Below, piece by piece: positions 26,740 to 59,379 of a DNA stretch of 64,000 nt (within the stretch, counting starts at the first letter, position 1; each line of letters opens with the position of its first letter). The DNA is taken from positions 1,696,001-1,760,000 of the forward strand of contig CBDCWC010000003.1 of assembly GCA_965223295.1 (NCBI GenBank), given 5' to 3'. Origin of the DNA: Nitrospirales bacterium. GTDB taxonomy: Bacteria > Nitrospirota > Nitrospiria > Nitrospirales > UBA8639. The notes beneath the pieces were generated by a model that saw nothing but the letters and a program-made list of their open reading frames with translations, was not told the DNA's origin and did no database searches. A program made the position numbers and the translations under genes.

Positions 26740-26755
26740 CGGCATGCACTTTGCT
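26740..26755 (+). promoter_or_regulatory. sigma-54 promoter
   Basis: CGGCATGCACTTTGCT upstream of the caspase gene. Confidence 0.6.
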
Positions 26756-29230: not shown

Positions 29231-29298
29231 CAAGACTCCCAATGCCCTTCTGGCTTAGATGCCTGGGGTGTTACTACCTCTGGATCTATGTCGGACAT

Positions 29299-29530
29299 TC
29301 AGACGTCGCCATCGAAGATCGCCTGGGTGTCCCAGCTTGGGCCAAGATTTGAGTTCCTTCGGCATCTCTTCAGGTGAGCGTGATCTGAAGCTTCATCCTC
29401 ATTCCTTGAAACACAAATGTATTGACGTAAGTGGTGTTGGGTTTGCTTGCAAAAGCTTTCAATCCCCTGAACATGCGTTATTCCCTGCACAAAACTTCTG
29501 AATGATTGGTTCGAAAGTGGAAGAAATTTG
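29299..29530 (-). pseudogene. Degenerate IS1595-family transposase C-terminal fragment
   Basis: FVQGITHVQGIESFCKQTQHHLRQY..VSR..HLKRC resembles the H-I-N-G-I-E-x-F-W...L-K-E-C motif. Confidence 0.5.
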
Positions 29531-29808
29531 GAAGTATATTCGGCATGGTAACTTAGTCTTGTAATCCTACAGGCAATTCCGTGGGTATCTGTTGGTCCAG
29601 TCTTAGCAAGAGGGTTTGACACTTCGCATTAAGAATAATGCGGGTGTATCCTCCTTCTCTTTCCCGTAGAAAAACAAACACTAGTACGTAGACTTCAATG
29701 CTGCGACCCTAGTTGCCTTATAGGGTCTCGCAACATCATTTTCGGCAATGCTCACAGAGCCATCAGACAGGAACCATGCAGCAAGCGCTCGCAGTGGAAT
29801 CTAGACAT

Positions 29809-29845
29809 GTATCTGAACAGATACTCTATTTATCTGAACAGATAC
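29809..29845. promoter_or_regulatory. Tandem palindromic operator GTATCT-N4-AGATAC (putative enhancer/UAS)
   Basis: GTATCTGAACAGATAC (29809) and TTATCTGAACAGATAC (29830), 21 bp apart. Confidence 0.75.
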
Positions 29846-29958
29846 GAGTTTAGGAATTGAGTGAGTGAGTTTTCTGTCGAGAATAATGGGCGCATGATAA
29901 ACATCTCTCATAGATAGGCAGCAGACGTCTAGCTGGAGTCGACTCTTTGGATTTCTTA

Positions 29959-29974
29959 TGGCACCACATCTGCA
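29959..29974 (+). promoter_or_regulatory. sigma-54 promoter
   Basis: TGGCACCACATCTGCA. Confidence 0.7.
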
Positions 29975-30114
29975 TAATGAATGGTGATAGTTTCAACAAT
30001 CTTGAATCTAAACAAAGAACCCTGCTTTTCCAGGTGGGGTATTCAAATAGGTTCTTTAGTAGAGATGAACTAATCAGATCAACAGTAAGTACTTGAATGG
30101 AAACGGAGGACAAT

Positions 30115-32802
30115 ATGTTCAGAGAACTTAAATATCAACTAAGCGGAATAACATTTTTGATAGCGTGGTTCTTTTTCGCGGGTTTCCCATTTGACAATTT
30201 TCGAGCTCAGGCAGCTCCTGCGCAGCCGTTTAAGAGAGCAACTCCTACATTGAAATTTCCTAAACTCGACTTTCCTTTATCCACAAGCCATCTCGAAGGG
30301 GTTGTGCAGCCGCTTGAGGCAGAAGATGCGACATTGAACGGTCCTCAAATCGCAAACGATCATCCTCATTTCACAGGAACAGGCTTTGCGGATTACATAG
30401 GGGAGGGGTCTATTGCATGGGACGTTACTATCGAGACCGCAGGATTATATCAGCTGGAATTTCGCTATGCACTAGCAAGCGGAGACCGTCCTCTGAATAT
30501 CTTGGGTAGCAATGGGATTCTCATAAAATCAAATGTGAGTTTTCCTGCAACTGGAGGTTTTGATGTCTGGAAAACAGTCACGGTCTTTACAAAGCTTGAT
30601 GCAGGTCCCAACACGATAAAAGCGGTCACGACTGGCGTGAGCGGAGCAAATATGGATCATTTGGTTGTCTCACTCACTCCCCCAGACCTCAATCGTTTCT
30701 TAAGTTTCCCTATTCATTCCTCTCATAAAGTTTTTCGAGGAAGCGAGGATAATGCTAAGGCCTACTATAAAGTGATCGATCCGAACGACCAGAGGACCAC
30801 CTTTGAAGACTGGAAGCAAGTGAATGGGCTCACAAATCCTCAGAACGATCCAAATGTCCATCATGCCACGTATTTTAACGGAGCCGACTTGGCTTTTGCT
30901 CGCGATATGTATGTCAAAGTACACAAGTCTGCAGATGGAAAGGTGAACTCAGCGGCTTCCTATGTCCAGAATTACCTGACTCTGAGTGATGCCGTCAATC
31001 GTACTAACTTGCTTGCCACCGTTGCCATGGAATACGGACCACCGGAAGGTAACCTTACCGCGCCTCGATTTACCAAATTTTTTGTTTTCGACAAAGATGG
31101 AAATCGTCTCACAAAAATTGATCTGGATGGTCGAGGGGCCAAATATGTACCTGGTCTTTGTAATGTCTGTCACGGAGGCAAGCCTAAGCTCGGAGCATTT
31201 CATGGAAGTGCGGCTACCTATCAGGATAGAGGAGACACAGGAGGAAAATGGATTCCTTGGGACCTTGACACCTATCAATTTCATCCTTCGAAAACACGGG
31301 CTCAACAGGAGGCAGAGTTCAAGAAATTAAACAGCGATATTTTAGAGATATACCGTGATCGTCCAAGAGGTACTAGCGTTACCAACTCGACCGCAGTGCT
31401 CATCAAAGGCTGGTATGGGGGCGAAGGATTGCCTAACACTAAGTTTAACGGAAATTATGTCCCACCCGGCTGGAAGAATACCTCTGATGGAAATAAAAGT
31501 GATCTCTATTTAAAGGTGGTCGGGCCAACCTGTCGTGCCTGCCATAATCAACGAGGAAGCTATCACAACGATGGCGGATTTTTCCAAGGAAATCTTCTGC
31601 AGTCTTCCCTGGAATTCAACTCGTATCACGACTTCAAAGGCTACAAAGATCAAATTGCACCCTTAGTCTATGACATGGGTGTCATGCCAGCAGCAAGACA
31701 GACGTTTGAGAATTTTTGGAGAAGTGATGCGCCAAAGATTCTTGACGATGAATTGTTTGGTGGGCAGGTCTACCAGAATCCGAACGAGCAAAATCCCACA
31801 CCTGGTGTCGCTCATTCTTTTGGGGCACTAAGAAGACCAGGACGCCCGATAGCCAATATCGCGGGGATTCCCACTACCTTTGGGGTTACAGATAAGGCTC
31901 CGATTGGCAATTTTTGCTTCCAAGGACCAATCTTCAGCTTAGCAGATGTGGCAGAAGGAAGCCGTGTCCGATTAAATGGAAGATCAAGCTTGTTCGCCGA
32001 GAGCTTTACGTGGAGTTTCGTGGATCCGCCTTCCTCTTGCTTTCCAGTCACGACGCCAACCATCGCGTCTCCAAATCGTTCATTAACCACATTTGAGTTA
32101 GACTCCAATCATAATTCTGACATTAAATCGGTCAGTTCGAAGCCGTACTATATTCGGTTACGCGTGACCAATGAGTTTGCAGACTTTAATCCGGCGATCA
32201 TTGGACAGCTGTTCACAGATAGCTCACTGAAGCCACTGGTGTTTGCAGACAGCAACCCTGCAACTAAGGATATATACAAGTTGCTGACGACCAATTTCCC
32301 ACTGTCAGGTGCCTCTGGTTCGAGTGGCCCGCTACAATGCATGCATTGCCATAGCAATGGCATTCTCGGAAGGGCCGGAGGTATCTTCGAGATGTGGGAC
32401 GTAACCCTACCGGGCGATGCCAATAGTGAACTGTGGAAGCGCATTGCCTATAACAATGTGATGACTCGTGTAGATTGCAATGATCCAGGTAATAGCTTGA
32501 TACTCAAAAAACCTGCCGGACATCATCACAATGGTGGAACTGTTCAAGGGTTTGGTGTGGGATCTGGCTTTAACCACCTGAGTTCTGGTGATGATAGCAA
32601 TCGGGAGGCTCTTCTACGATGGATCATGGAAGGTGCCCCGTATGCTGGGACTGGGGAATCTAGTGACCTGGGATGTCCAACAGGGCAATTCTTTTTTCCA
32701 ATCTCAAGTGTTTTTTCGACCTCAGTCAAACCAATTCATATTGAAAACCCAAGTTCTTCAATAGGAGTGACCAAGTTTTCGGCGCTAAACCTCAAGAAGT
32801 AG
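30115..32802 (+). CDS. Secreted triheme c-type cytochrome with N-terminal CBM6/35-like module and PKD-like domain
   Basis: Signal peptide; LEAEDA..FTGTGFADY..FRYA..W.TV..L.AG.NTI; CNVCH, CRACH, CMHCH; SLILKKP..HNGG..RWIMEGAP; GGAGG RBS. Confidence 0.85.
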   Translation: MFRELKYQLSGITFLIAWFFFAGFPFDNFRAQAAPAQPFKRATPTLKFPKLDFPLSTSHLEGVVQPLEAEDATLNGPQIANDHPHFTGTGFADYIGEGSIAWDVTIETAGLYQLEFRYALASGDRPLNILGSNGILIKSNVSFPATGGFDVWKTVTVFTKLDAGPNTIKAVTTGVSGANMDHLVVSLTPPDLNRFLSFPIHSSHKVFRGSEDNAKAYYKVIDPNDQRTTFEDWKQVNGLTNPQNDPNVHHATYFNGADLAFARDMYVKVHKSADGKVNSAASYVQNYLTLSDAVNRTNLLATVAMEYGPPEGNLTAPRFTKFFVFDKDGNRLTKIDLDGRGAKYVPGLCNVCHGGKPKLGAFHGSAATYQDRGDTGGKWIPWDLDTYQFHPSKTRAQQEAEFKKLNSDILEIYRDRPRGTSVTNSTAVLIKGWYGGEGLPNTKFNGNYVPPGWKNTSDGNKSDLYLKVVGPTCRACHNQRGSYHNDGGFFQGNLLQSSLEFNSYHDFKGYKDQIAPLVYDMGVMPAARQTFENFWRSDAPKILDDELFGGQVYQNPNEQNPTPGVAHSFGALRRPGRPIANIAGIPTTFGVTDKAPIGNFCFQGPIFSLADVAEGSRVRLNGRSSLFAESFTWSFVDPPSSCFPVTTPTIASPNRSLTTFELDSNHNSDIKSVSSKPYYIRLRVTNEFADFNPAIIGQLFTDSSLKPLVFADSNPATKDIYKLLTTNFPLSGASGSSGPLQCMHCHSNGILGRAGGIFEMWDVTLPGDANSELWKRIAYNNVMTRVDCNDPGNSLILKKPAGHHHNGGTVQGFGVGSGFNHLSSGDDSNREALLRWIMEGAPYAGTGESSDLGCPTGQFFFPISSVFSTSVKPIHIENPSSSIGVTKFSALNLKK

Positions 32803-32833
32803 CAGGATTAAAATGATGGACAACTCGCCATAC

Positions 32834-32908
32834 AGGAATGTTGAAAACAGGTAGCCGATCTTTCAGACAGACAATGTGGCTGCAGCCTCGCTGGGAGACT
32901 TTTTCGAT
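32834..32908 (+). repeat. Degenerate MITE family A remnant
   Basis: GGAATGTTGAAAA...GGCTGCAGCCTCGCTGGGAGACTTTTTCGA. Confidence 0.45.
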
Positions 32909-33862
32909 TAGTCCGTTGTCTCGTGAGATGAGATTTTTCTAAGAACTTTTTGAGTAAAAAACGGTCAACAGGTTTTCCATGAAAGGGCTGTTCTTTTTTT
33001 AGCTTCTTTCTTGATCACATGAATGATTGGGATAGTAGATATAGAGAGCATCAGAATTTGTCGATTCAACTATTGGTGTCAGTACTTCGTCTTGTTGAAC
33101 AAGAGGTTGTGCCTGAGCTTACTGGTGGTGGGGCAAGAGGATTAGGCTTATAAATCCGCGAGGAGAGATCCTGTATTTCGCAATGCACCATAGCTGTTCT
33201 CCAAAGACATTGGCCAACGAGTATCTTTGCCGTCCGGTCTGATTTTCACTCTATCATCAGATATGTTGAGGTTGTTGGTGGAATACAGTAGAGAGGGCAA
33301 TGGCAGATTTCCGTTTACGAAAATAGTTAGGTATTTCAACAACGGCTGGACGTTCGGCGAAAGTCCGAATATACCTTCACAAGTATCTGGCTCACGAGAT
33401 TCAATGGCAGCAAACCTCTTAAGTTATTGATGCAATGGGTTTAGCAGGTTTTCCTGTCGAATCTTTGTTGACTCGTGATTTATAGACATTTCATACGCAA
33501 CACGTGTGCGTTGACTTTCTTGACCTATCAGTCATCGAGGCGAGAGTTTTTCTCAGACAGTATTTTGGAGACGGTCCCTAGAGTGAGGTGCTCAATGAGA
33601 TTGAGGTTCCTCATCTCAATATTTAGGCGAGCTGTTGATCTTTAGTGTTGCGCCATAAAGGAAGAGGGGGAGTGGGACGAAAAGCACCTCCCTACTTCAC
33701 ATATGGTTACCTAACCGCCAGTTGGGAGAAAATCTATATCTTTATACAGGGTAGTAGCGTTCGTCTAATGCCTCGGAAATGCGCCCTATTGGGTTCATCA
33801 GGGTGGTATTCCTCGCCGTCAAAATCGAACTTTCTACTATCTCTCCAGATTCTAGACGGCAG

Positions 33863-34453
33863 TCATGGCTGTGTCAGCTTGCGCCATCCCAATAATCCTA
33901 ACAGCCCCGAGCCAAGCAGCAGAAACGTCCCAGGTTCAGGGACAACGTTCATTCTTGCCTCTTGAATAGTTTCAAGTGGCAAAGCTTCACCTGAAGCTTC
34001 ACTGACATCCACCTGAGTGAATTCGAGAGGACTCGTGCCTGTATTGTCAGTAGATGCACTGAAGAGTAACGTAGCAAGAGTGAAGCGATCTGGCTGAAGG
34101 GCATCCAGTTCAAAATCAGAGAGCAAGGATATTTCACTGACATCCACTATGCCAGGAGTAGAGGAATTACTATTCGTAATTGTCTCAAACAATCCTTCGT
34201 CGCCTAAAAACGGGCCGAAGGTTGCAGACTGGAATGTCAGTAAACTGGGTTCAAAACTGATGTCCACGTCGAAAGCGCCGAGGGAAGGAATTCCACCAGC
34301 GGTTAAGCCCGAGATGTCCAATGTGACCACGGCCAAATCTCCGCGCGATACATGCTGAGAAGAAGGATTAAGGGACAGAGAAACTGCCAGGGCCTGTCCA
34401 GCCCACAAACTGGTGGAACTGATAATAACAGCCAGGAATAGAATCTTTTTCAT
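33863..34453 (-). CDS. Cohesin-domain PEP-CTERM surface protein
   Basis: Signal peptide; LSLNPS..V..GD..LGAFDVDISF.P.LL...FTLATL.F.A..GTSPL.F; VPEPGTFLLLGSGLLGLLGWRK. Confidence 0.88.
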   Translation of the reverse strand: MKKILFLAVIISSTSLWAGQALAVSLSLNPSSQHVSRGDLAVVTLDISGLTAGGIPSLGAFDVDISFEPSLLTFQSATFGPFLGDEGLFETITNSNSSTPGIVDVSEISLLSDFELDALQPDRFTLATLLFSASTDNTGTSPLEFTQVDVSEASGEALPLETIQEARMNVVPEPGTFLLLGSGLLGLLGWRKLTQP

Positions 34454-34546
34454 CTTGGGGTTCTCCTGTTATGAAATGGGATAAAACGCATGTGGCGTTT
34501 TCAAAGGATCTTGAGTAGTAAGGGATAAGGGACGCATGTTTTGCTC

Positions 34547-36271
34547 TCATGGAATATTTAAGGCATCGGCAATAGCTTGAATTTGCCCCGGGCTGAGATC
34601 ATCGGTGCCGTTGCCGTCTCCTAAAAACTGCATTTGGACTTCCGTTTGAATGGCATTACTAATTTGTCCTGCCGATCTTCCCTTCTTTGCACTCATCGCG
34701 AGCGGTCCATGACATGTCTGACAGTGGGCATTGTAAAGCTGTTCCCCCGTTGCCTCAGGAGGAGTACAGGTTGGTTTTTCCCTTGGAGGGTTTGCCGTTG
34801 GATCACCACAGAGAACCTGTTGAGGGGTTGCTGAGGTGCCGTTGGTGAAATTCAAAATATCGGTTTTGAATCGGTTAAACGTATGCTCGGCGTGTGGCAT
34901 ACGTGGTGTGAACGAATCTGAACATGCCACACGTTGGGCATCCGCGCAGAAGTTCGTTGCCTTTTCCCAGTCGACACCACGGGTTGGATAGTTGTTCTGA
35001 GCTTCCCCTTGGGCGACATGACAGGTGCGACAATACCGTCGGTAAACGTTGTCATAGAGTGATCGCTCCTGGAAAAAAAAGTCGAACTCTGGAGAACCTA
35101 TCTCCTGAAAACCTTCAGGGTCTGTGTACCATGTCTCAGGAATAACCCGTCCGTTATAGGTATCATCAACGTGGACAAAGTCGCCAGGCTCCCGCCCATA
35201 CCAACCTAGGATAAGCTGTTCGATGGAATCCTTACGATTCTTCGATGCGTTCGCCACATGTTTGTTCAACCGATTGAACTCGAACGCTTGGTCGGACAAG
35301 GTGGGTTGTCCGGGCCAGTTTTCGAAGCTGGCAATATCAAAGGGGAGGTATTGTCCGCCTGCAGGTACCCCCAACCCGACCTTTTTATCTCCATTCCCAT
35401 CGGCGCCAAAGGGATCGGTTCGGCCCATATGGCACCCGTAACATTGCTCAGGGACTGCCTTTGCTCCCTCGCCGTCAAGGGCAATGCGATTCACCCGCTT
35501 CCCATCTTTATCGAACACAAAAAAGGCCACGATATCTCGATCATGGACGCCCTGTGTAAACCGCATCCGTTCCATGGCCACGGTGGCTATTAGGTCCCGC
35601 CCTAGCTGATCAGGAATGCCGTTTATTCCCTTAGGGTCGGCATAGTTTTGCACGTAGCAGGGAAAGCTCGTGCCGTCGTCTAGGCAAAACATGTCTCGGC
35701 CGAGTCCTCCAGTTTGTCCGGGGTCGAGGTCTCCAGCGTTGATAAAGGTCGCGTGGGCCGTTGAGAGGGGGAATTGGTCGAAGCGATGTAGGCTGCGCCA
35801 ATCGTCGAGAGTCGTACGCTCTCCCTGTGGATCCACCTTGCCATAATACGTGTCCAGATATCCCTCTTGCCCGAACTCCGGCTCGTCGCGCGGAGTGACA
35901 TCATAGGCTGGTGCGAAGAGCCCTAGGCTCACGGCTTCAAGATATAGACATCCGTTGGGGGTACTACAATCTGCCAGTGGTGGCGTGATGATCCCGCAGC
36001 GAGGTAAATTGCAATGAGACGAGACCAGTTGGCGTGCGTCCATGACAGTAATGCGCCCGTCTCCATCTAAATCACAGAGCTCTCCGCAATCACTCCCTCC
36101 AACAGTCTTGCCGCGGTCAGCGAGCAGAAGGACAAGGTCATTTCTATCAACATCCTGGTCATTGTCGATGTCACCGATAATACGAGCCTGTGCTATGGAT
36201 GTGAGAGTGAATACACCCCAAAAAACGGAAATCGCAAGGAAAGATGTAAAACTAAAGTATCGAAGTTTCAT
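34547..36271 (-). CDS. Secreted triheme c-type cytochrome with N-terminal dockerin
   Basis: GDIDNDQDVDRNDL...DLDGDGRITVMDA; CYGCH, CRTCH, CQTCH; core homologous to 30115..32802; AAGGAG RBS before ATG 36271. Confidence 0.85.
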   Translation of the reverse strand: MKLRYFSFTSFLAISVFWGVFTLTSIAQARIIGDIDNDQDVDRNDLVLLLADRGKTVGGSDCGELCDLDGDGRITVMDARQLVSSHCNLPRCGIITPPLADCSTPNGCLYLEAVSLGLFAPAYDVTPRDEPEFGQEGYLDTYYGKVDPQGERTTLDDWRSLHRFDQFPLSTAHATFINAGDLDPGQTGGLGRDMFCLDDGTSFPCYVQNYADPKGINGIPDQLGRDLIATVAMERMRFTQGVHDRDIVAFFVFDKDGKRVNRIALDGEGAKAVPEQCYGCHMGRTDPFGADGNGDKKVGLGVPAGGQYLPFDIASFENWPGQPTLSDQAFEFNRLNKHVANASKNRKDSIEQLILGWYGREPGDFVHVDDTYNGRVIPETWYTDPEGFQEIGSPEFDFFFQERSLYDNVYRRYCRTCHVAQGEAQNNYPTRGVDWEKATNFCADAQRVACSDSFTPRMPHAEHTFNRFKTDILNFTNGTSATPQQVLCGDPTANPPREKPTCTPPEATGEQLYNAHCQTCHGPLAMSAKKGRSAGQISNAIQTEVQMQFLGDGNGTDDLSPGQIQAIADALNIP

Positions 36272-36339
36272 TGTCCACTCCTTTTTCATTTACGAAATTC
36301 TTTCAAGTTCACGGTTATGCCATCCAATCCGTAAATTCG

Positions 36340-36355
36340 TGCAGTTTTAGTGCCA
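36340..36355 (-). promoter_or_regulatory. sigma-54 promoter
   Basis: Minus strand TGGCACTAAAACTGCA. Confidence 0.72.
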
Positions 36356-36463
36356 CACATAAAAAATCGAACGTTTTACAAATCGGCATAGAAGGAGAAG
36401 CAATTGGAGAGGTTTTGAAGGTTTTTGCCATGATTGTCAAAAGTTTTAACCATTCTTGAGTTT

Positions 36464-36520
36464 GTATCTGATGAGATACGGTTTATATATCTTCAGATAC
36501 AAATTTGAATTATGAGATAC
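36464..36520. promoter_or_regulatory. GTATCT-N4-AGATAC operator plus two phased half-sites
   Basis: GTATCTGATGAGATAC (36464-79); AGATAC again at 36495 and 36515. Confidence 0.72.
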
Positions 36521-36538
36521 TGCGAAGAATTCACGACA

Positions 36539-38023
36539 TTAAAATTCCATTCGAGCTCCCAGTGTCACAATATGATTGGAAATGTTTCTTAGGCCTAAGA
36601 ATGTTTCATAATCTAAATAGACTTGAGTCCCTCCTGCAGAGACATTAGCAAGAGTGGCTCCGACTCGAAAGAAATTCCGATCAGGGGCTTCATTTCTTAT
36701 AAATAAAGGGTTATTAAAGGGATCATTCACATACTTGGTCGTTGTTGTTTTCGCATCATTTTTAAATTCATGATCCCATTCTCCTCGTATTTGGGGATAC
36801 CAGACACCCCATTTCCAACTGAATTTTTTTGATGCTTGAAGGCCAAGGGCTGAAATAAGAGAGGTAATATCTTGGCCTTCAACTTCCAGGTTTAATCCTC
36901 CTGCACCTGATTCTTCAAATCCATCAATATCGAGTTTAAAATACGTCAGTCGAGCAAAGGGACCAAAATCAACACTTCCTACGTGAGCGGCATAGCCCGT
37001 GCCTAAACTCAGTGAGTATTGGGTGCTATCTGTTTCACCTTTGGCTGTTCTGCGTGTTGAGGGTTCGGCCGTATTTGATGGAATGACAATCTTTCTCTTT
37101 GAATCATGGTCATTCCATCCGACAGACCCAATTCCCTCCAAATAGAAATCTTGTAGGTAATAGGTGCCATAGATCGAAAATACATAACCATCTGAATCAC
37201 TGCCTCCCCCGGCATTGACGGAGGACTTGTGAAAATCACCATCAAAATGTGAATAACTAAATGCGGTTCCGACAACCAGTTCTTCGAGGAATCGGTAGTC
37301 AACTCCTACTGTGACCCCGCCGGTGTTAAAGTCGAATCCGTCTTCTCGTGAGGTTTCATCTTTCTCCCCTGTTCCGAGTGAGCCACTGATAAAGGTCCCT
37401 AACCGACTGAATGCCCCGCTTCCAAGATCGCCGGAAGCCCCGCCCCCTCTTGGCTGAAGTCCAGGAAGCCCCATGCTCTGGGCCCGTAAATCTGGCAAGG
37501 GGGCTATTCCGTTCAGATTGAGGCCGGCGACAGAGAATCCGCGTGCGCCTCCCCGCAGAGCTGTAAGGCGGCCCCGCAAATTTCTTTGTTGGCCGTTAAA
37601 GGTTTTGGAAGCCATTGTTCTTGGGGCTAAGACTTCTTCTCCTGCCACTTGTTGAAGAGCTCTACTCAGTTCACTAAAAGATATTCCTAAGCTGTTGGTC
37701 GTAAGCCCTGAACTCGAAAGTTCATTTTCCGAGTGAACCAGCGAGCGGCAAATGAGGAATAAGTCTTGTTCTAAACCTGTTCGACCAGACAGATCGCGAA
37801 TGTTCGGCCACAAATTTTCAATAGCTACACCAGTTGTTGATTGTAAGCTTGACTGACCCGGTAGTTCTCCCAGCGTTTGAGTATGTCCGACGACGAATAT
37901 CGATTCGCCCAATATCAAACTAGCAATTAGCATGAAGAGACATGTGCCATATTGAACGATTGACTTTGGTGATAACTGAGATTTCTTGATGCGAAAAGAG
38001 CAGTTGTGTGTAGACTGAATCAT
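36539..38023 (-). CDS. Autotransporter beta-barrel protein with short passenger (paralog 2)
   Basis: Clearly homologous to 24904..26415 (APRTMASKTFNGQQRNL, YPQIRGEWDHEF); terminal ARMEF. Confidence 0.88.
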   Translation of the reverse strand: MIQSTHNCSFRIKKSQLSPKSIVQYGTCLFMLIASLILGESIFVVGHTQTLGELPGQSSLQSTTGVAIENLWPNIRDLSGRTGLEQDLFLICRSLVHSENELSSSGLTTNSLGISFSELSRALQQVAGEEVLAPRTMASKTFNGQQRNLRGRLTALRGGARGFSVAGLNLNGIAPLPDLRAQSMGLPGLQPRGGGASGDLGSGAFSRLGTFISGSLGTGEKDETSREDGFDFNTGGVTVGVDYRFLEELVVGTAFSYSHFDGDFHKSSVNAGGGSDSDGYVFSIYGTYYLQDFYLEGIGSVGWNDHDSKRKIVIPSNTAEPSTRRTAKGETDSTQYSLSLGTGYAAHVGSVDFGPFARLTYFKLDIDGFEESGAGGLNLEVEGQDITSLISALGLQASKKFSWKWGVWYPQIRGEWDHEFKNDAKTTTTKYVNDPFNNPLFIRNEAPDRNFFRVGATLANVSAGGTQVYLDYETFLGLRNISNHIVTLGARMEF

Positions 38024-38165
38024 GAACGCCTCCAAGGGAATTTATTGACAATGGAAATTGTCAATAAGTCTGTTGAATAGATTTGAAAAAACAATCGTAT
38101 CGTTACGGAGTTTCCTCTTTCTTGATCTTTCCTTGATAAACGGATTTGACATCGTGTGGTGTCAG

Positions 38166-38181
38166 TGCATTTCCAGTGCCA
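38166..38181 (-). promoter_or_regulatory. sigma-54 promoter
   Basis: Minus strand TGGCACTGGAAATGCA. Confidence 0.68.
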
Positions 38182-38314
38182 CAGACAGAAGAACGTGGCC
38201 TATTGAGCAATGCTGCTCTGACGTATGCCCGCGTACAGAGGCTTTAAGGGCTGTTTGTTATGAAAGAACAGGGAAAGAGTGAATTGCTTGGAAGCGGGGA
38301 CCGATAGACCTGGT

Positions 38315-38351
38315 GTATCTCATTAGATATGTCAGGTATCTCTTTAGATAC
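38315..38351. promoter_or_regulatory. Tandem GTATCT-N4-AGATAC operator
   Basis: GTATCTCATTAGATAT (38315) and GTATCTCTTTAGATAC (38336), 21 bp apart. Confidence 0.75.
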
Positions 38352-38548
38352 ATCATTAATGATACGGATCTGTAAGCCTGATATTGCTAATGCCTTGGTG
38401 GGTAACAGGGTGGCAAAGCAGTGCTAAAAAATTGCTTTTACAGAAATTCTCAGAAAAAATTAGGAGGGGCGTCAGGGTATTATGACGTGTCCCAGAGATC
38501 CGAGGGTTGGTGCGGAGGAAAATTGACTGGGTGGAGTTGCGACACTAA

Positions 38549-39991
38549 CTAACGCGGAAGATGAATGCCGTATTTTTTAATCTTATAGTACACCGTCCCT
38601 CGACTGACATTTAGCGCCTTCGCGGCTCTCTGGGTATCCCACTTCTGTTCAGTTAGGACCTTAATCAATGCCTCTCGGTTGACATCCTCCAACAAGGAAG
38701 GCTTGTCTTCAGAATCACTCTCGGGTTTGTCCTCATAGCTGAAATCAGGGGGAAGTTCTTGATAGATAATTTCATCATCAATTGTGTAGGTAGGACGCGA
38801 ACGAAGGATGACGCTATATAATATGTTCTCTAATTGACGAACATTGCCAGGCCAGTGGGCCGACAACAGCAGTTTCATCCCTTTGTCTGTCACTATGGGG
38901 ACTGTGTCCAATCGAAGTTCCTGCCCAAGCTTTCGTAAAAAGTGATCAATCAGAGCTGGAAGATCCTCTGTCCGTTCTCGTAAGGGAGGCACAACAATTT
39001 GTACAACTCGCAGTCGATAGTATAAATCTTCTCGAAAACTTCCATTTTTAATATCCTGCTCTAAATTTCTATTCGTTGCAGTAATAAAGCGGACATCCGT
39101 CAGGATTTCTTGCGATCCGCCAACGCGCATAATGGCATGTTGTTGTAATACGCGGAGCAACTTTGCCTGAGCCGGCAGGGATAGTTCGCCAATCTCGTCC
39201 AAAAAAATCGTGCCATTTTTCGCTTGCTCGATTTTGCCAATCTTCATATTTGAGGCGCCGGTGAAGGCGCCTTTTTCATACCCAAACAATTCACTCTCCA
39301 TAAGGTCGAGGGGAAGAGCGGCACAGTTCACTGGCAAAAATACCGAGCCGTTTCTCGAACTACTGTGGTGCAGGGCTCGCGCAACGAGTTCTTTCCCTGT
39401 CCCATGTTCCCCTCGAATTAGCACAGTGGCCGGGCTGTCACCCACATCAAGGATTAATTTGTAGAGTTCCTTCATCGCAGGACTCTCACCAATCAATCCG
39501 CCAAAGTGAACTGTGCTGGCAGGGCAAGACCGAATAATTGAGGATTCGGCCAAGGCATCTTCTTTTGGAGCTGAATGTGTGACAGACGGCAAGGGTCTGG
39601 TTTCGTCTTCATCGACCTGAGCGCAGGCAATTTCAAATGGGTAAATCGTCAGTCGGCAGCGGCTCGGGAGAGGAGTGGGACCTTTCAGAGGCTGATTGTC
39701 CAGGAAAATACCATTCTTGTTCTTGTTGAATATTTGGTATCTCGTTCCTTCCCATTCTATAACAGCAGCCTGTCGGGAAATGTGGGCATTATTCAGAACG
39801 ACATCATTCGAGTCGGAGCGTCCAATAGAAAGGTGATCTTTATTGAACGACACTTGCATGATGACTGCATCTTTTAAATGAACTGTGAATTGAATCATTT
39901 CAACACCATTGAACGAGCTTGCTTCTGTTTGGCCGAAACAGACTTTCTGCAACGATGACGTCGTTTCACCGTTGCTGGAGGAATGTGCCAC
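38549..39991 (-). CDS. FHA-domain sigma-54-dependent transcriptional activator (FHA-AAA+-Fis HTH)
   Basis: SIGRSDSNDVVL..ISRQ..NG (FHA); GEHGTGKE, GAFTGA, FLDEIGEL, FREDLYYRL, WPGNVRQL; AAKALNVSRGTVYYKIKKY. Confidence 0.93.
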   Translation of the reverse strand: MAHSSSNGETTSSLQKVCFGQTEASSFNGVEMIQFTVHLKDAVIMQVSFNKDHLSIGRSDSNDVVLNNAHISRQAAVIEWEGTRYQIFNKNKNGIFLDNQPLKGPTPLPSRCRLTIYPFEIACAQVDEDETRPLPSVTHSAPKEDALAESSIIRSCPASTVHFGGLIGESPAMKELYKLILDVGDSPATVLIRGEHGTGKELVARALHHSSSRNGSVFLPVNCAALPLDLMESELFGYEKGAFTGASNMKIGKIEQAKNGTIFLDEIGELSLPAQAKLLRVLQQHAIMRVGGSQEILTDVRFITATNRNLEQDIKNGSFREDLYYRLRVVQIVVPPLRERTEDLPALIDHFLRKLGQELRLDTVPIVTDKGMKLLLSAHWPGNVRQLENILYSVILRSRPTYTIDDEIIYQELPPDFSYEDKPESDSEDKPSLLEDVNREALIKVLTEQKWDTQRAAKALNVSRGTVYYKIKKYGIHLPR

Positions 39992-40156
39992 CTCTCAAGT
40001 TAGTGGATTTTGGAGCAAACTCTCTAATTAATCAAGACTCTGTTGTGTGCTTATTGGTTTTCACTGAATGGCAGTTTCGGGCTTCTCAAGAAGCTGTTCC
40101 AGTAAATTTATTGACCATGCTAACTAGTGAGGACCTTGAATTGGAAATCTGGTCGG

Positions 40157-40192
40157 TTATCCATTGAGATACTTTTTCAAAAAATTAGATAC
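40157..40192. promoter_or_regulatory. Degenerate tandem operator of the same motif
   Basis: TTATCCATTGAGATAC (40157-72) and a second AGATAC half-site 20 bp further. Confidence 0.5.
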
Positions 40193-40333
40193 TGGGTTGT
40201 CAATATTTGAAATCTTCTAACCCACTCGTTACACAACCTCTACTTCTGAAATTCAAAAAATATTCATCCTATCTCATTGAAAAACAAAGGATTTGTCAGC
40301 CAAATGTTATTTTGTCTTTTGAGTCATGAGATC

Positions 40334-40349
40334 TGGCATCTCCATTGCT
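40334..40349 (+). promoter_or_regulatory. sigma-54 promoter of the repeat-protein operon
   Basis: TGGCATCTCCATTGCT. Confidence 0.72.
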
Positions 40350-40483
40350 CTATTAAAAAAACATGAAGCAACACGGAAGACAGAACACAAAGAACCAAAC
40401 ATGTTTATTAACTTTGTCGATTGATTCAGGAAAGTCTATTGGCAAAGAGGACAACAAGTCCATTGAGACATAAGGAGGTCATC

Positions 40484-41233
40484 ATGACAAGCGCTAAAAA
40501 CAGTCAACTCATCATCGTCATGCTTGCAAGCCTACTCCACATGGGTGCGACCCTAGGATTGGCCGCATCGGGTATGGATGGAGAGATTTCTAATACCTAC
40601 GAGGGGGACCAGGTGACTAATAGCGGACAGAGCGAGCAAGGGCAGGCCAACGTGGGATCTATCGTCATCTCGGGTAGTACGGTCAAAGGAAAAATTACGA
40701 ACAACGCCGTCATCAAGAATTCCCAAAATCGAGCTGATGGGAAAGGGGCTAAGGCCAATCTGGGCACGATTAATCTGGAGGGCAGCACCTTTCAAGGCAC
40801 GCTCAATAACACAAGTGTCGTGGACGGAGCGCAGAACATGTCTAAAGGGGACAATGCCCAGGCCAACATGGGTGCCGTGAGCCTTGAACACAGCAATGTC
40901 ACCGGCCAGATTTCGAACAACGTCAAAGTGAAAAACGGCGCACAAAACATTGCAGATGGGAATAACGCGACAGCCAACATGGGATCAGTGAGAGTCAAAA
41001 ACAGCAATTACAAAGGAAAAATTATCAATTCCTGGGAGGGCCTGGACGGAACCAATATGGCGGTTGGGTCGGGCAGTGAAGCCAATACCGGTTCCGTGGT
41101 GATTGAAAGCAACAACGCCCCCACGAACATCATCAACAATATCCAAACCTCTCCAGGTGGGGCGAATGGGCCAGGTGGCAATGTGGCCACCGGTGGCCAA
41201 ACATCCAACATTAATTCAATCGTCATCAAATAA
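40484..41233 (+). CDS. Secreted N/G/S-rich repeat protein R1 (6 repeats of ~36 aa; curlin/Fap-like candidate)
   Basis: TAAGGAGG RBS, signal peptide, repeats N-x-A-x-G-x-x-A-x-A-N-M/L-G-S-I/V; no Cys. Confidence 0.8.
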   Translation: MTSAKNSQLIIVMLASLLHMGATLGLAASGMDGEISNTYEGDQVTNSGQSEQGQANVGSIVISGSTVKGKITNNAVIKNSQNRADGKGAKANLGTINLEGSTFQGTLNNTSVVDGAQNMSKGDNAQANMGAVSLEHSNVTGQISNNVKVKNGAQNIADGNNATANMGSVRVKNSNYKGKIINSWEGLDGTNMAVGSGSEANTGSVVIESNNAPTNIINNIQTSPGGANGPGGNVATGGQTSNINSIVIK

Positions 41234-41321
41234 GATGATGATCACTACAACACAGGAGGCAGTCATGAAACAACATCATCAACTCAATCAACAATCAACA
41301 TTTTTTTCCAAGGAGGGTACC

Positions 41322-42167
41322 ATGAAAACAGTCATCTCATTTGTTGCCACGCTCATGTTAGTTGGCGCGCCAGGCGCGTTTGCTCAATCACAGATTGACG
41401 GCGAAGTCAGAAATAAGGCTGAGATCACTGACTCGACCAACCAAAGCTATGCTGGAGAAAGAGGAGCCGCGAACCAGGGGTCTGTGCACATCAAGAATTC
41501 ACCGGTTGAAAGGGGCGCCCTAATTAAGAATGAGGCTAAGATTAGAAACAGTCATAACTACGCCAATGCAGAAGGCGCGGATGCCAATCAAGGGTCGGCC
41601 CAAGTTCTGTTTGGCGAGGTCTCTGGCACAGTCGACAACTGGGCCGATATTAAGGACAGTTACAACTACGGTGATGGCAGGCATTCAGATGCCAATCAGG
41701 GCTCGATTCAAGTGAAGGATGGTAGTAGCGTGTCGGGCCTGGTCAAAAACCACGCCACGATTAGAGAGAGTGATAACACTGCCAGTGGGAATTATTCGGA
41801 TGCCAATCAGGGCTCGATCCAATTATTCAACAATAGCCGTGTATCTGGCGAGGCCTATAACACAGGTGAGATTAGGAACAGTGAAAATTGGGCAGAAGGC
41901 AACTATTCAGATGCCAACATGGGGTCGATCCAACTGGAGAATGGTGCGGTAGTCGAGCGCGGTGGGAAAATTGACAACAAATTCGACGTGCGGGATAGTC
42001 ACAACCATGCGGCTGCTCGAGATTCCGTGGCCAACATGGGTTCTGTCCGAGTCGAGAATTCGGAAATTACCGGGGCGGTGTACAACGATGCAACGGTGAA
42101 GAATTCCGATAACCATGCCTGGACGCAAGGTTCACGGGCCAACAGTGGCTCTGTCGACATTCACTAA
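41322..42167 (+). CDS. Secreted N/G/S-rich repeat protein R2 (7 repeats of 36-39 aa; candidate major fibre subunit)
   Basis: AAGGAGG RBS, AFA signal cleavage site, repeats S-x-N-x-A-x-G-x-x-S-D-A-N-Q/M-G-S-I-Q; no Cys, one Pro in the mature part. Confidence 0.82.
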   Translation: MKTVISFVATLMLVGAPGAFAQSQIDGEVRNKAEITDSTNQSYAGERGAANQGSVHIKNSPVERGALIKNEAKIRNSHNYANAEGADANQGSAQVLFGEVSGTVDNWADIKDSYNYGDGRHSDANQGSIQVKDGSSVSGLVKNHATIRESDNTASGNYSDANQGSIQLFNNSRVSGEAYNTGEIRNSENWAEGNYSDANMGSIQLENGAVVERGGKIDNKFDVRDSHNHAAARDSVANMGSVRVENSEITGAVYNDATVKNSDNHAWTQGSRANSGSVDIH

Positions 42168-42176
42168 TCAGCAATG

Positions 42177-42222
42177 GCACTATCGAATCGGGGACATCTT
42201 CCGATTCGATAGTGCTTTTCTT
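42177..42222 (+). terminator. Strong hairpin/terminator directly after R2
   Basis: 15-bp perfect stem GCACTATCGAATCGG/CCGATTCGATAGTGC followed by TTTTCTT. Confidence 0.8.
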
Positions 42223-42270
42223 GAACTTCGTGTCGTAGAACGCAGAGACAATCAACAAAGGAGCCTGATC

Positions 42271-42591
42271 ATGAATCACAGAGCAACAAATGTTGGAATA
42301 TTGTTGGTTTCAATCTTTCTGATAGGAGCCTCTTTTGGATATGCTGGAGAGCTGGATGACGGAATTTCCAGCTACAATGACGAACCGATTGTGGCGGATG
42401 ATACGGCTCTTGAATCCGACCCCAATCTAAATTTTGTGATTGTAGACGCTATTTCCTCGGCCAGATCGGGCAACGGCAACAGCAATTTCAACGACGGCCA
42501 AGGCGATAACAATCAAAACAGTATTGTGTTTGAAGCGGGGGTTGGGGATATCAACGGCCCAATAACTAACATTGTGATTGAACAACCTTAG
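42271..42591 (+). CDS. Small secreted acidic N/G-rich protein with one partial repeat
   Basis: AAGGAG RBS, signal GYA; C-terminal NQNSIVFEAG..GPITNIVI resembles the R1/R2 repeat. Confidence 0.72.
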   Translation: MNHRATNVGILLVSIFLIGASFGYAGELDDGISSYNDEPIVADDTALESDPNLNFVIVDAISSARSGNGNSNFNDGQGDNNQNSIVFEAGVGDINGPITNIVIEQP

Positions 42592-42651
42592 TTTGACAGT
42601 TCTGAGGGAGTAAGACTGTCAACAATTCATAGAGAAGGAGTAGCGCACATC

Positions 42652-44208
42652 ATGATTGCTTTCAACCCATCAGCCACCACCATTATCGTTCGATTTATAC
42701 GGACTTGGGTTTTTGCTCCCCTGTTGGGCGTAACTTTGGCGGTGTTCGGTATCTCCTGCCAATCAATGGACCCCCGGAATGTAGATGTGGAGCTACCCGA
42801 CACGTTGCCCCAAGCCAAGGTGACATCGTATACCGAAGCGTTGTCACGCTTGGGAGACATGACTCAGATTTATGCCTCAGATATCTTAAAGATTCAGAGT
42901 AATCCGATCCGTGATAATACCGGAGCCTCTGCCCCGCTCGCGACCGGAGGAGAAATTCCTCGTGATATAACGGAAATGATTAAGACTTCTCTCAATTCGA
43001 TTGGTGGGCGAGTGACCTTTATCCCCTATGATCCCGCTTTTGTTCAGAATCAAACGCTGACAGGGTACTCAAATTTTGACAGGAAATTGATTCCTAATTT
43101 AGTCCTCAGCGGAGGGATTACCGAGTTTGATCGTGGACTGATCACCGAAGGGGAAAATACAGATGTCAGTTTGGAATATGAAGTTTCAGGTATTCCGGAT
43201 GCCTTGCCTTCTAAAAACCTAGGTGTTCGCTATGGGGATGAAGTCAAAGCCGGTTTGGCGCGGATTACTTTAGACTTCAATCTTGTAGATTTTCAAACCC
43301 TTTCTGGCATTCCGAAAATCAATGCTGTCAATACCATGGAGGTTAATAAGGCTCTTGGCGAGCGTGAACTTGGTGTGAGTATTTTCGGACAATCCTTTGG
43401 GTTGAAGGGATCTATGAAGAAAGTGCAGGGCCGTCATGCTGCTGTTCGACTGTTGGTGGAACTCAGCATGATTCAGATAGTGGGAAAATATTTGGCTGTT
43501 CCCTATTGGCGGTTATTGGGAGATGATGCGAACCCTGACCCGGTGGTTCTCCAAGCGGTAGCGAGCTACTATTCTTCTCTCTCGAACGAGAAGGTGAATA
43601 ATACGATTCAACAATGGCTCGCGGTATATGGTTATGACATGGACTTAGATGATGAGCTGGATGAGGCGACGAAGACAGCGTTGGCGGAAATCGATCCTGA
43701 ATTTAACCTTGATACTTCTTCGGTTAGCCTTGAGACCTTTACCAAGGTCTATCTGAATATCCCCTTGACACTTCAAGCTTTTCAGAATCGGCAAGTTCTG
43801 GCGCAGCGCCTCCGAGCGAAGGCTGAAAAAACCCGATTGGCTTCGGGAACATCTGAAGTCCCTCGTGAGACGCCAGGCCCTGTTCCGGCAGGGACAGAAA
43901 TGCCAGTGGCCTCGGATCCACCAGCTTCAGGTGAAATCATTGTCACGCAACCAGCTTCCCCGATGCCTCCGGTTGAACCCGTAACCCAGGCGGCGAGCCC
44001 ACCCGTGACGCCGAAGAAACCACAACAGATTGTGTCACCACCGCAACCGAAGACGAACCCGCAACCGTCCGCGAAACCTGAGCGGGCTTTGCAACCAGAC
44101 AAGGATCCGAAGCAGTATGTCGAGAAACAAGCTCCAACACCAGTGGCTCTTCAACCTATTGTTCGAACTGGAATTGGCCGGTTCCTAACTGAGGGAGAAT
44201 GGGAGTGA
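42652..44208 (+). CDS. CsgG/HfaB-like outer-membrane lipoprotein with PG-binding-like helices and Pro-rich tail
   Basis: Lipoprotein Cys (GISC); IRDNTG, TEMIKTSL, LVLSGGITEFD, ITLDFNLVD, HAAVRLLVELSMIQIVG; IQQWLAVYGY..DELDEATKTAL. Confidence 0.7.
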   Translation: MIAFNPSATTIIVRFIRTWVFAPLLGVTLAVFGISCQSMDPRNVDVELPDTLPQAKVTSYTEALSRLGDMTQIYASDILKIQSNPIRDNTGASAPLATGGEIPRDITEMIKTSLNSIGGRVTFIPYDPAFVQNQTLTGYSNFDRKLIPNLVLSGGITEFDRGLITEGENTDVSLEYEVSGIPDALPSKNLGVRYGDEVKAGLARITLDFNLVDFQTLSGIPKINAVNTMEVNKALGERELGVSIFGQSFGLKGSMKKVQGRHAAVRLLVELSMIQIVGKYLAVPYWRLLGDDANPDPVVLQAVASYYSSLSNEKVNNTIQQWLAVYGYDMDLDDELDEATKTALAEIDPEFNLDTSSVSLETFTKVYLNIPLTLQAFQNRQVLAQRLRAKAEKTRLASGTSEVPRETPGPVPAGTEMPVASDPPASGEIIVTQPASPMPPVEPVTQAASPPVTPKKPQQIVSPPQPKTNPQPSAKPERALQPDKDPKQYVEKQAPTPVALQPIVRTGIGRFLTEGEWE

Positions 44209-45812: not shown

Positions 45813-46559
45813 ATGACAATGATGCGGGCACACTTCTCAGCTCTCTACTTTGTGATAGGGTTTCCTTTTTGTCTGTTGCAGATATGCTCTACACTGGTAT
45901 CTGCGGAAGTAAGGGTGACCCAAACCAGCACCGTCAATTTGTCTCGAGAAGACGATACTGTGTCTTCTTTCACGACGTGCATTGTGGGAAATGGAAAAGA
46001 AGTAACCGAACAACGACGGCTGACAGATTTTTCGGAGATCAAGATTGATGGGGCGTTCACGGTTAATATTGATATTCAACCAGGAAGAAGTCTTATGGTC
46101 ACTGGTGATGAAAACCTTTTGTCTCGCTACGAGACAACAGTTCAGAACGGAAGGTTGTTTGTCAGCACTCATGGTGTTGTGTGTCCAGGAGTACCGCCAA
46201 AAATTCGAATGACCAACGATGTGCTTGCCATTCTCCTTGCTGAGGGGTCTGCTGATATCTCAATCTCTCATCTTGATAACCGGACCTTTGCGGTTCAGTT
46301 AGATGGGGCGAGTGAGCTGCAACTTTCCGGGAAAAGTGAAAAATTTATTGGCCGACTTCGGGGGGGCAATACGTTAAATGCCAGTGAGTTCCAGTCACAG
46401 GAAACGATGATTTCCATTGATGGCGCAGGGGAAGCGTTGGTCCATGCTGAACAAAAACTGGTTGTAGAGATCAAAGGTGTTGGAAACATCCTGTATGGAG
46501 GCCATCCTCACACCATCGAGCAACGAATTTATGGCACAGGTACCATTCAACCTCAATAG
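45813..46559 (+). CDS. DUF2807 / GIN-domain beta-helix protein
   Basis: GNGKEVTEQRRL.DFSEI.I.GAF.V; GDENLL; I.G.GNI.Y.G.P. Confidence 0.9.
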   Translation: MTMMRAHFSALYFVIGFPFCLLQICSTLVSAEVRVTQTSTVNLSREDDTVSSFTTCIVGNGKEVTEQRRLTDFSEIKIDGAFTVNIDIQPGRSLMVTGDENLLSRYETTVQNGRLFVSTHGVVCPGVPPKIRMTNDVLAILLAEGSADISISHLDNRTFAVQLDGASELQLSGKSEKFIGRLRGGNTLNASEFQSQETMISIDGAGEALVHAEQKLVVEIKGVGNILYGGHPHTIEQRIYGTGTIQPQ

Positions 46560-58339: not shown

Positions 58340-58716
58340 TTGTATATCCTTTTCTGCAAAAGTGATTCATTCCCACATCACTCTGTGGGGAATTGTCTCC
58401 AAAATGACCGATTTTTTCATGAAAATACGAACAAACAGAAAAATAAGCAAAATATATGCCATTAAACCAGTATTGAATTTTTTTGGCTATCTGGAGGACA
58501 AAATGAGGAAACTCAAGGACAAAGTGTAGGGAGAGTGAGAGAACCTAGACTTGTTGGATATTGGGACTTATTGGAAGAAAGCCCAAGCAAAAAATTAGTC
58601 TTACTTATCATTTGTTTATCATATTCGAAAAAAGATGAATCATATGAAGACAGTTTTGGTCAGTTTGGCTTGTGAACCCCTTTCTCCTGAGGACTGCTTG
58701 GTGTTACTTCTCTGAT

Positions 58717-59363: not shown

Positions 59364-59379
59364 TGGCATGCCCTTTGCT
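59364..59379 (+). promoter_or_regulatory. sigma-54 promoter
   Basis: TGGCATGCCCTTTGCT. Confidence 0.7.

Follow-up and report, generated by a model that had tools for sequence, protein, structure and literature searches.

A tandem dyad predicted to act as a sigma-54 enhancer throughout a genus of Nitrospirales

The 64,000-nt stretch of Nitrospirales DNA analyzed here (the window) belongs to a genome of 3.78 Mb in three contigs (G000), and four of its intergenic regions combine a palindromic element with a sigma-54 promoter. The element is a 16-bp dyad with the consensus GTATC(T/C)-N4-(A/G)GATAC that occurs in pairs 20-22 bp apart, ~105-150 bp upstream of a -24/-12 element. The dyads behave as sigma-54 upstream activating sequences (UAS) as regards position, orientation, phasing and between-species conservation, and an enhancer role is predicted for them. 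The four window promoters appear to be members of a larger regulon, which is predicted to comprise ~20 operons in G000 and to be conserved throughout the genus. As far as sequence comparison can tell, the enhancer motif and the genus-wide sigma-54 regulon are new, well supported and of a known type. RR1, an NtrC-family response regulator encoded outside the window and 690 kb away (G000:C3:1036884-1038299), is put forward with moderate confidence as the reader of the dyads.

Most Nitrospirales are uncultured, and to our knowledge their transcriptional control is almost unexplored. The analysis offers a sharply defined cis-element that is conserved in 50 of 50 genus genomes, ~20 target operons and a few candidate activators, and the regulon is testable without culturing the organism. 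Its targets span signalling proteins, secreted enzymes, cytochromes, an autotransporter and repeat proteins. The original prediction had described a four-promoter regulon under the bacterial enhancer-binding protein (bEBP) with an FHA domain that is encoded among the window sites (FHA-bEBP); it drew the scope too narrowly and probably named the wrong activator. The nearest activator gene can mislead when an enhancer is to be assigned.

Tandem dyads and sigma-54 promoters

The exact palindrome GTATCT-N4-AGATAC has three matches in the window (29809, 36464 and 38336), compared to 0.00 expected from 100 shuffles, and nine matches with up to two mismatches, compared to 1.40 expected. Seven of these nine fall into the four intergenic regions (29809, 29830, 36464, 36485, 38315, 38336 and 40157). 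The paired sites first noticed in the sequence are thus real, with two dyads 21 bp apart at three regions (29809/29830, 36464/36485 and 38315/38336). At the fourth, one dyad of the proposed pair stands (40157), and its partner is an AGATAC half-site at 40187, 20 bp on. The two other relaxed palindromes are isolated (33837 and 54754), so that the motif is confined to the four regions as a tandem site and not as a single palindrome. The sigma-54 pattern TGGCAY-N6-TGCW has six exact matches in the window compared to 0.50 expected, and four of them are the promoters 1 to 4 of Table 1. As proposed, each lies downstream of a dyad cluster, with gaps of 114, 109, 134 and 142 bp to the proximal dyad, and all four face a gene and point away from the dyads. 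Sigma-70-type promoters were considered for the four operons and rejected: the region holds 8 matches compared to 15.4 expected, none of them positioned to serve the operons.

Seven exact palindromes and 22 with one mismatch are found in the whole of G000, almost all of them paired. A weight matrix unveiled 20 tandem pairs spaced 20-22 bp, which together with the dyad-with-half-site of the window make 21 clusters. Seventeen of these lie outside the window, and the regulon is accordingly no longer one of four promoters. An outward-facing GG-N10-GC element, accepted at seven or more of 11 consensus letters, is present 100-150 bp from the proximal dyad at 17 of the 21 clusters, compared to 12.1% of 20,000 random positions (binomial P ~9e-13). 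The linkage persists without the four window clusters (13/17) and under stricter thresholds (15/21 compared to 4.2% of random positions, and 10/21 compared to 1.0%). In the genome-wide scan that had been proposed as a check, the motif is common in the genome and linked to sigma-54 at most of its clusters. A mobile promoter cassette was rejected as an explanation: the spacers that separate dyads from promoters are unrelated in sequence, and the sites are therefore independent and not copies of one cassette.

Two caveats apply to this picture. The weight matrix was trained on the same sites that it scored and is circular as a statistic, which leaves the counts of strict patterns as the independent evidence. 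In addition, four of the 21 clusters have no recognizable -24/-12 element at 100-150 bp (C3:379597, C3:597156, C3:1042209 and C2:1571898). A REC-PAS gene follows the cluster at 1042209 at a distance of ~190 bp; its true start probably lies 16 codons further downstream than the listed one.

Among all dyad-linked promoters, the four of the window match the sigma-54 consensus best (10 of 11 letters). Most of those outside the window have TGGTAT, TGGTCT, AGGTAT or a similar sequence at -24 and not TGGCAC. Within the usual 100-150 bp of the dyads, the strict consensus is restricted to the window promoters; another strict match lies 339 bp from cluster C3:597156. This difference may reflect a different promoter strength or a recent acquisition. 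The gene content of G000 includes a single rpoN (one Sigma54_DBD match) and ~22 bEBP genes with strong Sigma54_activat matches.

The genes at the outside clusters are diverse. They include two REC-PAS proteins, a PhoD-like phosphatase, a Tle1-like lipase-domain protein, a tyrosinase with PPC domains, a DegT aminotransferase, a B12/radical-SAM enzyme, a dihaem peroxidase-like cytochrome, a VWA protein, a 1277-aa protein without family and a second NtrC-type regulator. Cluster 1046458 (C3:1046458-1046495) is predicted to drive an operon in which a small protein and a periplasmic binding protein are encoded together with a 777-aa histidine kinase. Many products of the regulon look secreted. The proposal of one surface programme is nevertheless too narrow because the targets outside the window are this diverse and extend to cytoplasmic signalling and enzyme genes.

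The distribution of the motif was followed with a strict tandem pattern (TATCY-N4-RGATA-N6-8-TATCY-N4-RGATA) and its reversed form as a control, in 50 genomes of the genus and in an order-wide sample of 121 genomes. All 50 genus genomes carry the strict pattern in 1-15 copies each, with 13 in G000, and the reversed control has none. Across the order it occurs in 42 of the 121 genomes, again with no control match anywhere. Within the family of the window, the motif is present in all sampled genomes of genera g1, g10, g11, g12 and g13 and in two of three of g9, and in none of the 30 genomes of the small-genome genus g8. Other families carry it in 18/47 (f2), 7/21 (f3) and 0/5 (f4) genomes. In family f3, the arrangement of dyads and promoter precedes single-domain response-regulator genes and a Lon-like gene. 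One g12 genome of the window's family (G128) is listed with 16 Mb in 20 contigs, compared to 2-5 Mb in other family members, which may point to an unusual assembly or to a truly large genome.

Candidate activators of the dyads

In G000, four bEBP genes have a cluster at a distance of no more than 4 kb, namely those of FHA-bEBP, of a GAF-type protein (GAF-bEBP) and of the response regulators RR1 and RR2. RR2 (C3:764254-765675) is a 51% paralogue of RR1 and patchy in the genus. RR1 itself is present in 48 of the 50 genus genomes at 79-92% identity and is the sole near-universal one among the four profiled. In one of the two genomes without a match (G050), the syntenic motif locus sits at the first bases of a contig, and the RR1 gene has therefore probably fallen off the contig. 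The neighbourhood of RR1 is kept in two further species (G041 and G008), with a GSU2086-family gene and RR1 followed on the opposite strand by a metallophosphoesterase gene, a cluster, the small gene, the binding protein, the histidine kinase, a second cluster and a REC-PAS gene. At 80 loci around RR1 homologues, clusters were found 1.2-7 kb downstream in 4/4 loci at 82-85% identity and in 1/2 at 69%, and in none of the other 75. By a comparison of coordinates, 13 genomes have a strict cluster no further than 10 kb from RR1, and another two have one at up to 15 kb. In G063, which is the closest relative as judged by two regulators other than FHA-bEBP (92% and 87%), RR1 is the only bEBP with adjacent clusters.

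Several observations speak against RR1. The sister genus g8 keeps a syntenic RR1 orthologue of 58-62% identity in 20 of 30 genomes and has tandem dyads in none of the 30. A looser tandem pattern was likewise absent from the five g8 genomes searched (5/5), and no site was found within 10 kb of the g8 orthologue. Conversely, a genome of family f3 (G102) carries the motif and has no RR1 orthologue among its 14 bEBPs. Within the genus, the nearest strict cluster of G012 lies 14.6 kb from RR1. Only four of the ~22 bEBPs were profiled across the genus, and another universally conserved bEBP is possible. The co-occurrence of RR1 and the motif thus holds within the genus and fails beyond it. The recognition helix of RR1 reads QRTYLSR in motif-rich genera and QRSYLAR (as in g8) or QRTYLAR elsewhere, a difference that could explain a change in specificity; a search near the g8 orthologues for a variant motif found no inverted repeats or sites.

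Two further points of this kind come from GAF-bEBP (G000:C3:838132-839697), a serious competitor for the role of reader. At 11 of 30 GAF-bEBP loci a cluster lies within 1.5 kb, always directly past the stop codon, in G000 (C3:837754-837790) and in 10 further species, and in family f1 the protein is found only in motif-bearing genera. Order-wide, all 14 genomes with GAF-bEBP carry the motif, the motif-free g8 has the protein in none of 30 genomes, and the recognition helix is identical in G000 and G110. However, GAF-bEBP was not found in nine of the 50 motif-carrying genus genomes. These nine include G012, which is 98% complete and has 13 strict clusters, as well as G008, G046 and G017 (91-93% complete), where only AAA+-domain matches to other bEBPs were obtained. 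Nor was it found in the motif-bearing genomes of g9, g12, f2 and f3. The gene beside GAF-bEBP differs between species, which speaks for a local rather than a global regulator. This target gene could not serve as a marker in genomes lacking GAF-bEBP, since none of the five searched has a homologue of it. That GAF-bEBP reads the dyads throughout is considered improbable.

The adjacent FHA-bEBP was the activator proposed at first, and Pfam confirms it as such a protein, with FHA, sigma-54 AAA+ and HTH_8 domains. In that proposal it binds the dyads and co-activates the operons around it as a single surface programme. The 10.5 kb around its gene hold four clusters, two of which are no more than 250 bp from it, and the order FHA-bEBP, dyad, sigma-54 promoter and fibre operon is kept in the two species with close orthologues (G016, 86% identity; G052, 78%). 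When the fibre-operon upstream region is aligned from the three species, the blocks common to all are the dyad, the promoter and a stretch next to the start of FHA-bEBP. If FHA-bEBP does activate the fibre operon, this footprint offers it only the dyad to bind, and the earlier idea stays alive for that promoter. Against it stands the phyletic pattern, as a full-length homologue (E<=1e-100) exists in 13 of the 50 genus genomes and the other 37 still carry the motif. Beyond G016 and G052 the homologues are only 51-55% identical, and at seven of seven of their loci no site was seen within 1.5 kb. In G063, with 15 strict clusters, the FHA homologue is 51% identical and lies 30 kb from any cluster. 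In G000, 17 clusters are far from the gene, and the recognition helix and helix-turn-helix of FHA-bEBP are unlike those of the other candidates. With ~20 operons and the motif in every species of the genus, the adjacent activator is therefore an unlikely reader. We regard its joint control of the local operons as quite unlikely, and the phyletic data argue against FHA-bEBP as the reader, or at least the sole reader, of the dyads beside it.

More probably, FHA-bEBP belongs to a Ser/Thr-kinase pathway. Homologues of the Ser/Thr kinase encoded in the window (48271-50676) directly adjoin FHA-bEBP homologues in G012 and G014, and the window kinase is therefore likely the input of the FHA domain, which suggests that the two form a signalling pair. 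The conserved block AGTTAG...AATTAATCAAG at 39999-40040, directly upstream of the FHA-bEBP start, is kept in G000, G016 and G052 and is possibly the sigma-70 promoter or leader of the gene itself.

A third alternative assigns the dyads to a further conserved bEBP, to several unrelated ones, or to a DNA-bending cofactor outside the bEBP family that aids local activators. For eight of the 21 clusters, one of the four bEBP genes (FHA, GAF and the two response-regulator types) is no further than 9 kb away, the bEBPs beyond these four leave room for another conserved reader, and no single bEBP matches the motif distribution across families, a comparison in which the bEBPs of five small genomes also yielded no match. 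On the other side, the geometry of the dyads is that of a classical NtrC-type enhancer, with half-sites of 5-6 bp, centres 11 bp apart and pairs two helical turns apart at ~120 bp from the promoter. The fibre-operon footprint has no visible second conserved upstream element for a separate activator, and the four helix-turn-helix sequences are too different for one shared specificity to be expected. This alternative is possible, though rather doubtful. Its boldest form is a long shot: the tandem GTATC-N6-GATAC dyads would be a clade-specific common enhancer, a docking or bending platform for unrelated activators (FHA, GAF, response-regulator) or for a non-bEBP cofactor. If this were true, new surface-protein genes could join sigma-54 control by gaining the module beside any activator gene.

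The mechanism we favour runs through RR1. NtrC-type activators bind enhancer dyads as dimers, assemble into an AAA+ ring and contact the sigma-54 holoenzyme by DNA looping, which leads to promoter opening. By analogy, a signal would reach the 777-aa histidine kinase, probably via its periplasmic binding-protein partner, and the kinase would phosphorylate RR1. One RR1 dimer would occupy each dyad, both dyads lying on the same helical face. Neighbouring dimers would then assemble into the AAA+ ring and loop to the sigma-54 holoenzyme at the -24/-12 element ~120 bp away, and the promoter would open. A regulator that activates the adjacent kinase operon is the usual layout of an autoregulated two-component system, and an RR1-driven kinase operon would form such a positive feedback loop. 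Binding, the identity of the reader and activation are what we infer from the anatomy of the sites and the NtrC-type mechanism.

Genes and promoters of the window

The coordinates of the dyads, promoters and genes are collected in Table 1, with Pfam labels for window proteins assigned at E<=0.01. No dockerin or cohesin domain, labels that had been given to two of the proteins, was recovered at this threshold; otherwise the gene assignments come close to those of the original prediction. The PEP-CTERM gene and the cytochrome gene upstream of it are probably on the same transcript.

Table 1. Predicted UAS, sigma-54 promoters and associated genes in the window (window coordinates)
Feature	Position	Strand	Basis
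UAS 1, two dyads 21 bp apart (GTATCTGAACAGATAC / TTATCTGAACAGATAC)	29809..29845	.	palindrome counts
Sigma-54 -24/-12 promoter 1, TGGCACCACATCTGCA, 114 bp past the proximal dyad	29959..29974	+	exact pattern match
CBM35/CBM6-module protein, 901 aa, 3 CXXCH haem motifs; first gene behind promoter 1	30097..32802	+	Pfam
PEP-CTERM protein, 196 aa, 93 bp downstream of the cytochrome gene	33863..34453	-	Pfam
Cytochrome c protein, 580 aa, 3 CXXCH, Cytochrome_CBB3 domain; first gene behind promoter 2	34547..36289	-	Pfam
Sigma-54 promoter 2, TGGCACTAAAACTGCA	36340..36355	-	exact pattern match
UAS 2, dyads 36464 and 36485 (21 bp apart) and a third AGATAC half-site at 36515	36464..36520	.	
Autotransporter, 498 aa, beta-domain E=4.5e-61; first gene behind promoter 3	36539..38035	-	Pfam
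Sigma-54 promoter 3, TGGCACTGGAAATGCA	38166..38181	-	exact pattern match
UAS 3, dyads 38315 and 38336, directly past the stop of the FHA-bEBP gene	38315..38351	.	
FHA + sigma-54 AAA+ + HTH_8 enhancer-binding protein (FHA-bEBP)	38549..39991	-	Pfam
UAS 4, one dyad (TTATCCATTGAGATAC) and a half-site 20 bp on; dyad kept in G016 and G052	40157..40192	.	
Sigma-54 promoter 4, TGGCATCTCCATTGCT, kept in G016 and G052	40334..40349	+	
Fibre operon, repeat-rich proteins without Pfam family; syntenic with FHA-bEBP in G016 and G052	40421..44208	+	
Ser/Thr protein kinase, 801 aa	48271..50676	+	

Three of the dyad/sigma-54 surface-protein operons are carried by a lineage-specific 9.3-kb segment of G000 (29231-38548). 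The caspase/Sel1 gene on its left (26828-29230) directly abuts the FHA-bEBP gene in both G016 and G052, and because the flanking genes are adjacent there, the segment is a lineage-specific insertion or rearrangement in G000. The autotransporter orthologue of G016 is located elsewhere and has no dyads. With three motif-driven operons in a segment specific to G000, surface-protein genes therefore appear to be recruited quickly into the regulon.

Other features of the window lie apart from the dyads. Two more exact sigma-54 promoter matches without GTATC dyads, at 58446-58461 (-) and 59364-59379 (+), are divergent and ~900 bp apart. They presumably belong to another activator, and no convincing repeat was found between them. 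The sequence CGGCATGCACTTTGCT at 26740-26755 (+), 88 bp upstream of the caspase/Sel1 gene, is one mismatch away from the sigma-54 pattern and has no dyads nearby. Between the fibre operon and the Ser/Thr kinase gene, a DUF2807 (adhesin head) protein and an HtrA-like Trypsin_2/PDZ protease are encoded at 45813-48039.

Comparison with known enhancer systems

The closest general likeness is to the NtrC family, whose UAS are, as here, dyad sites of ~16-17 bp for a dimer with a Fis-type helix-turn-helix, at least two on one helical face, ~100-150 bp upstream of the -24/-12 element, and are served by a response-regulator activator with its kinase under the same control. The enhancer of NtrC (NRI) itself at glnAp2 has the half-site TGCACC and functions in nitrogen assimilation. 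Unlike this enhancer, the dyads described here have the half-site GTATC, and their targets are signalling, secreted and surface proteins. Scored against NCBIfam models, RR1 reaches 393 bits for NtrC (TIGR01818, cut-off 558.6), 401 for AtoC (cut-off 714) and 396 for PrsR (TIGR02915, cut-off 502.6), and FHA-bEBP reaches 315 bits for NtrC and 306 for PrsR; both proteins remain below the cut-offs of all three models. Membership in NtrC proper or in the PrsR/PEP-CTERM-box system was rejected, given the different half-site and spacing and the scores of the regulators below the cut-offs.

FHA-domain enhancer-binding proteins of Myxococcus xanthus are reportedly linked to Ser/Thr kinases, a finding said to go back to Jelsbak et al. 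in 2005. The Nitrospirales FHA-bEBP resembles these activators in its FHA, AAA+ and helix-turn-helix architecture and in having a Ser/Thr kinase gene as a conserved neighbour. The distribution of FHA-bEBP does not follow the dyad motif.

A literature search yielded neither this motif nor any account of a sigma-54 enhancer from Nitrospira or Nitrospirales; the part of PMC8553950 that was available deals with lux boxes only and contains nothing on this motif. A comparable arrangement is the PrsK/PrsR system of Proteobacteria, in which, according to the available part of the report, a conserved upstream motif and a sigma-54 motif precede many PEP-CTERM genes (Haft et al., 2006; PMC1569441). PrsR, an NtrC-like response regulator with a histidine kinase, was assigned there as the activator via a phylogenetic profile, and motif 1 of that system is described in the same part as a 17-nt word that closes with TTTACA, is separated from the sigma-54 motif by ~63 nt and is found in Proteobacteria only (PMC1569441). 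As far as this portion allows a comparison, both systems place an upstream motif and a sigma-54 motif before many single surface-protein genes, and one target operon of the window has a PEP-CTERM protein. The elements described here differ from it in being paired palindromes at a distance of ~110-140 nt, in their occurrence in Nitrospirales and in having one annotated PEP-CTERM target.

Sigma-54 has also been viewed, in the accessible portion of a broader survey, as a controller of the bacterial exterior (Francke et al., 2011; PMC3162934). The window targets are consistent with this view as it is put there, since they are surface or secreted proteins, namely an autotransporter, PEP-CTERM, CBM and cytochrome proteins and repeat proteins. 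The regulon differs from that outline in that it also comprises cytoplasmic REC-PAS proteins, a DegT aminotransferase, a radical-SAM enzyme and another bEBP.

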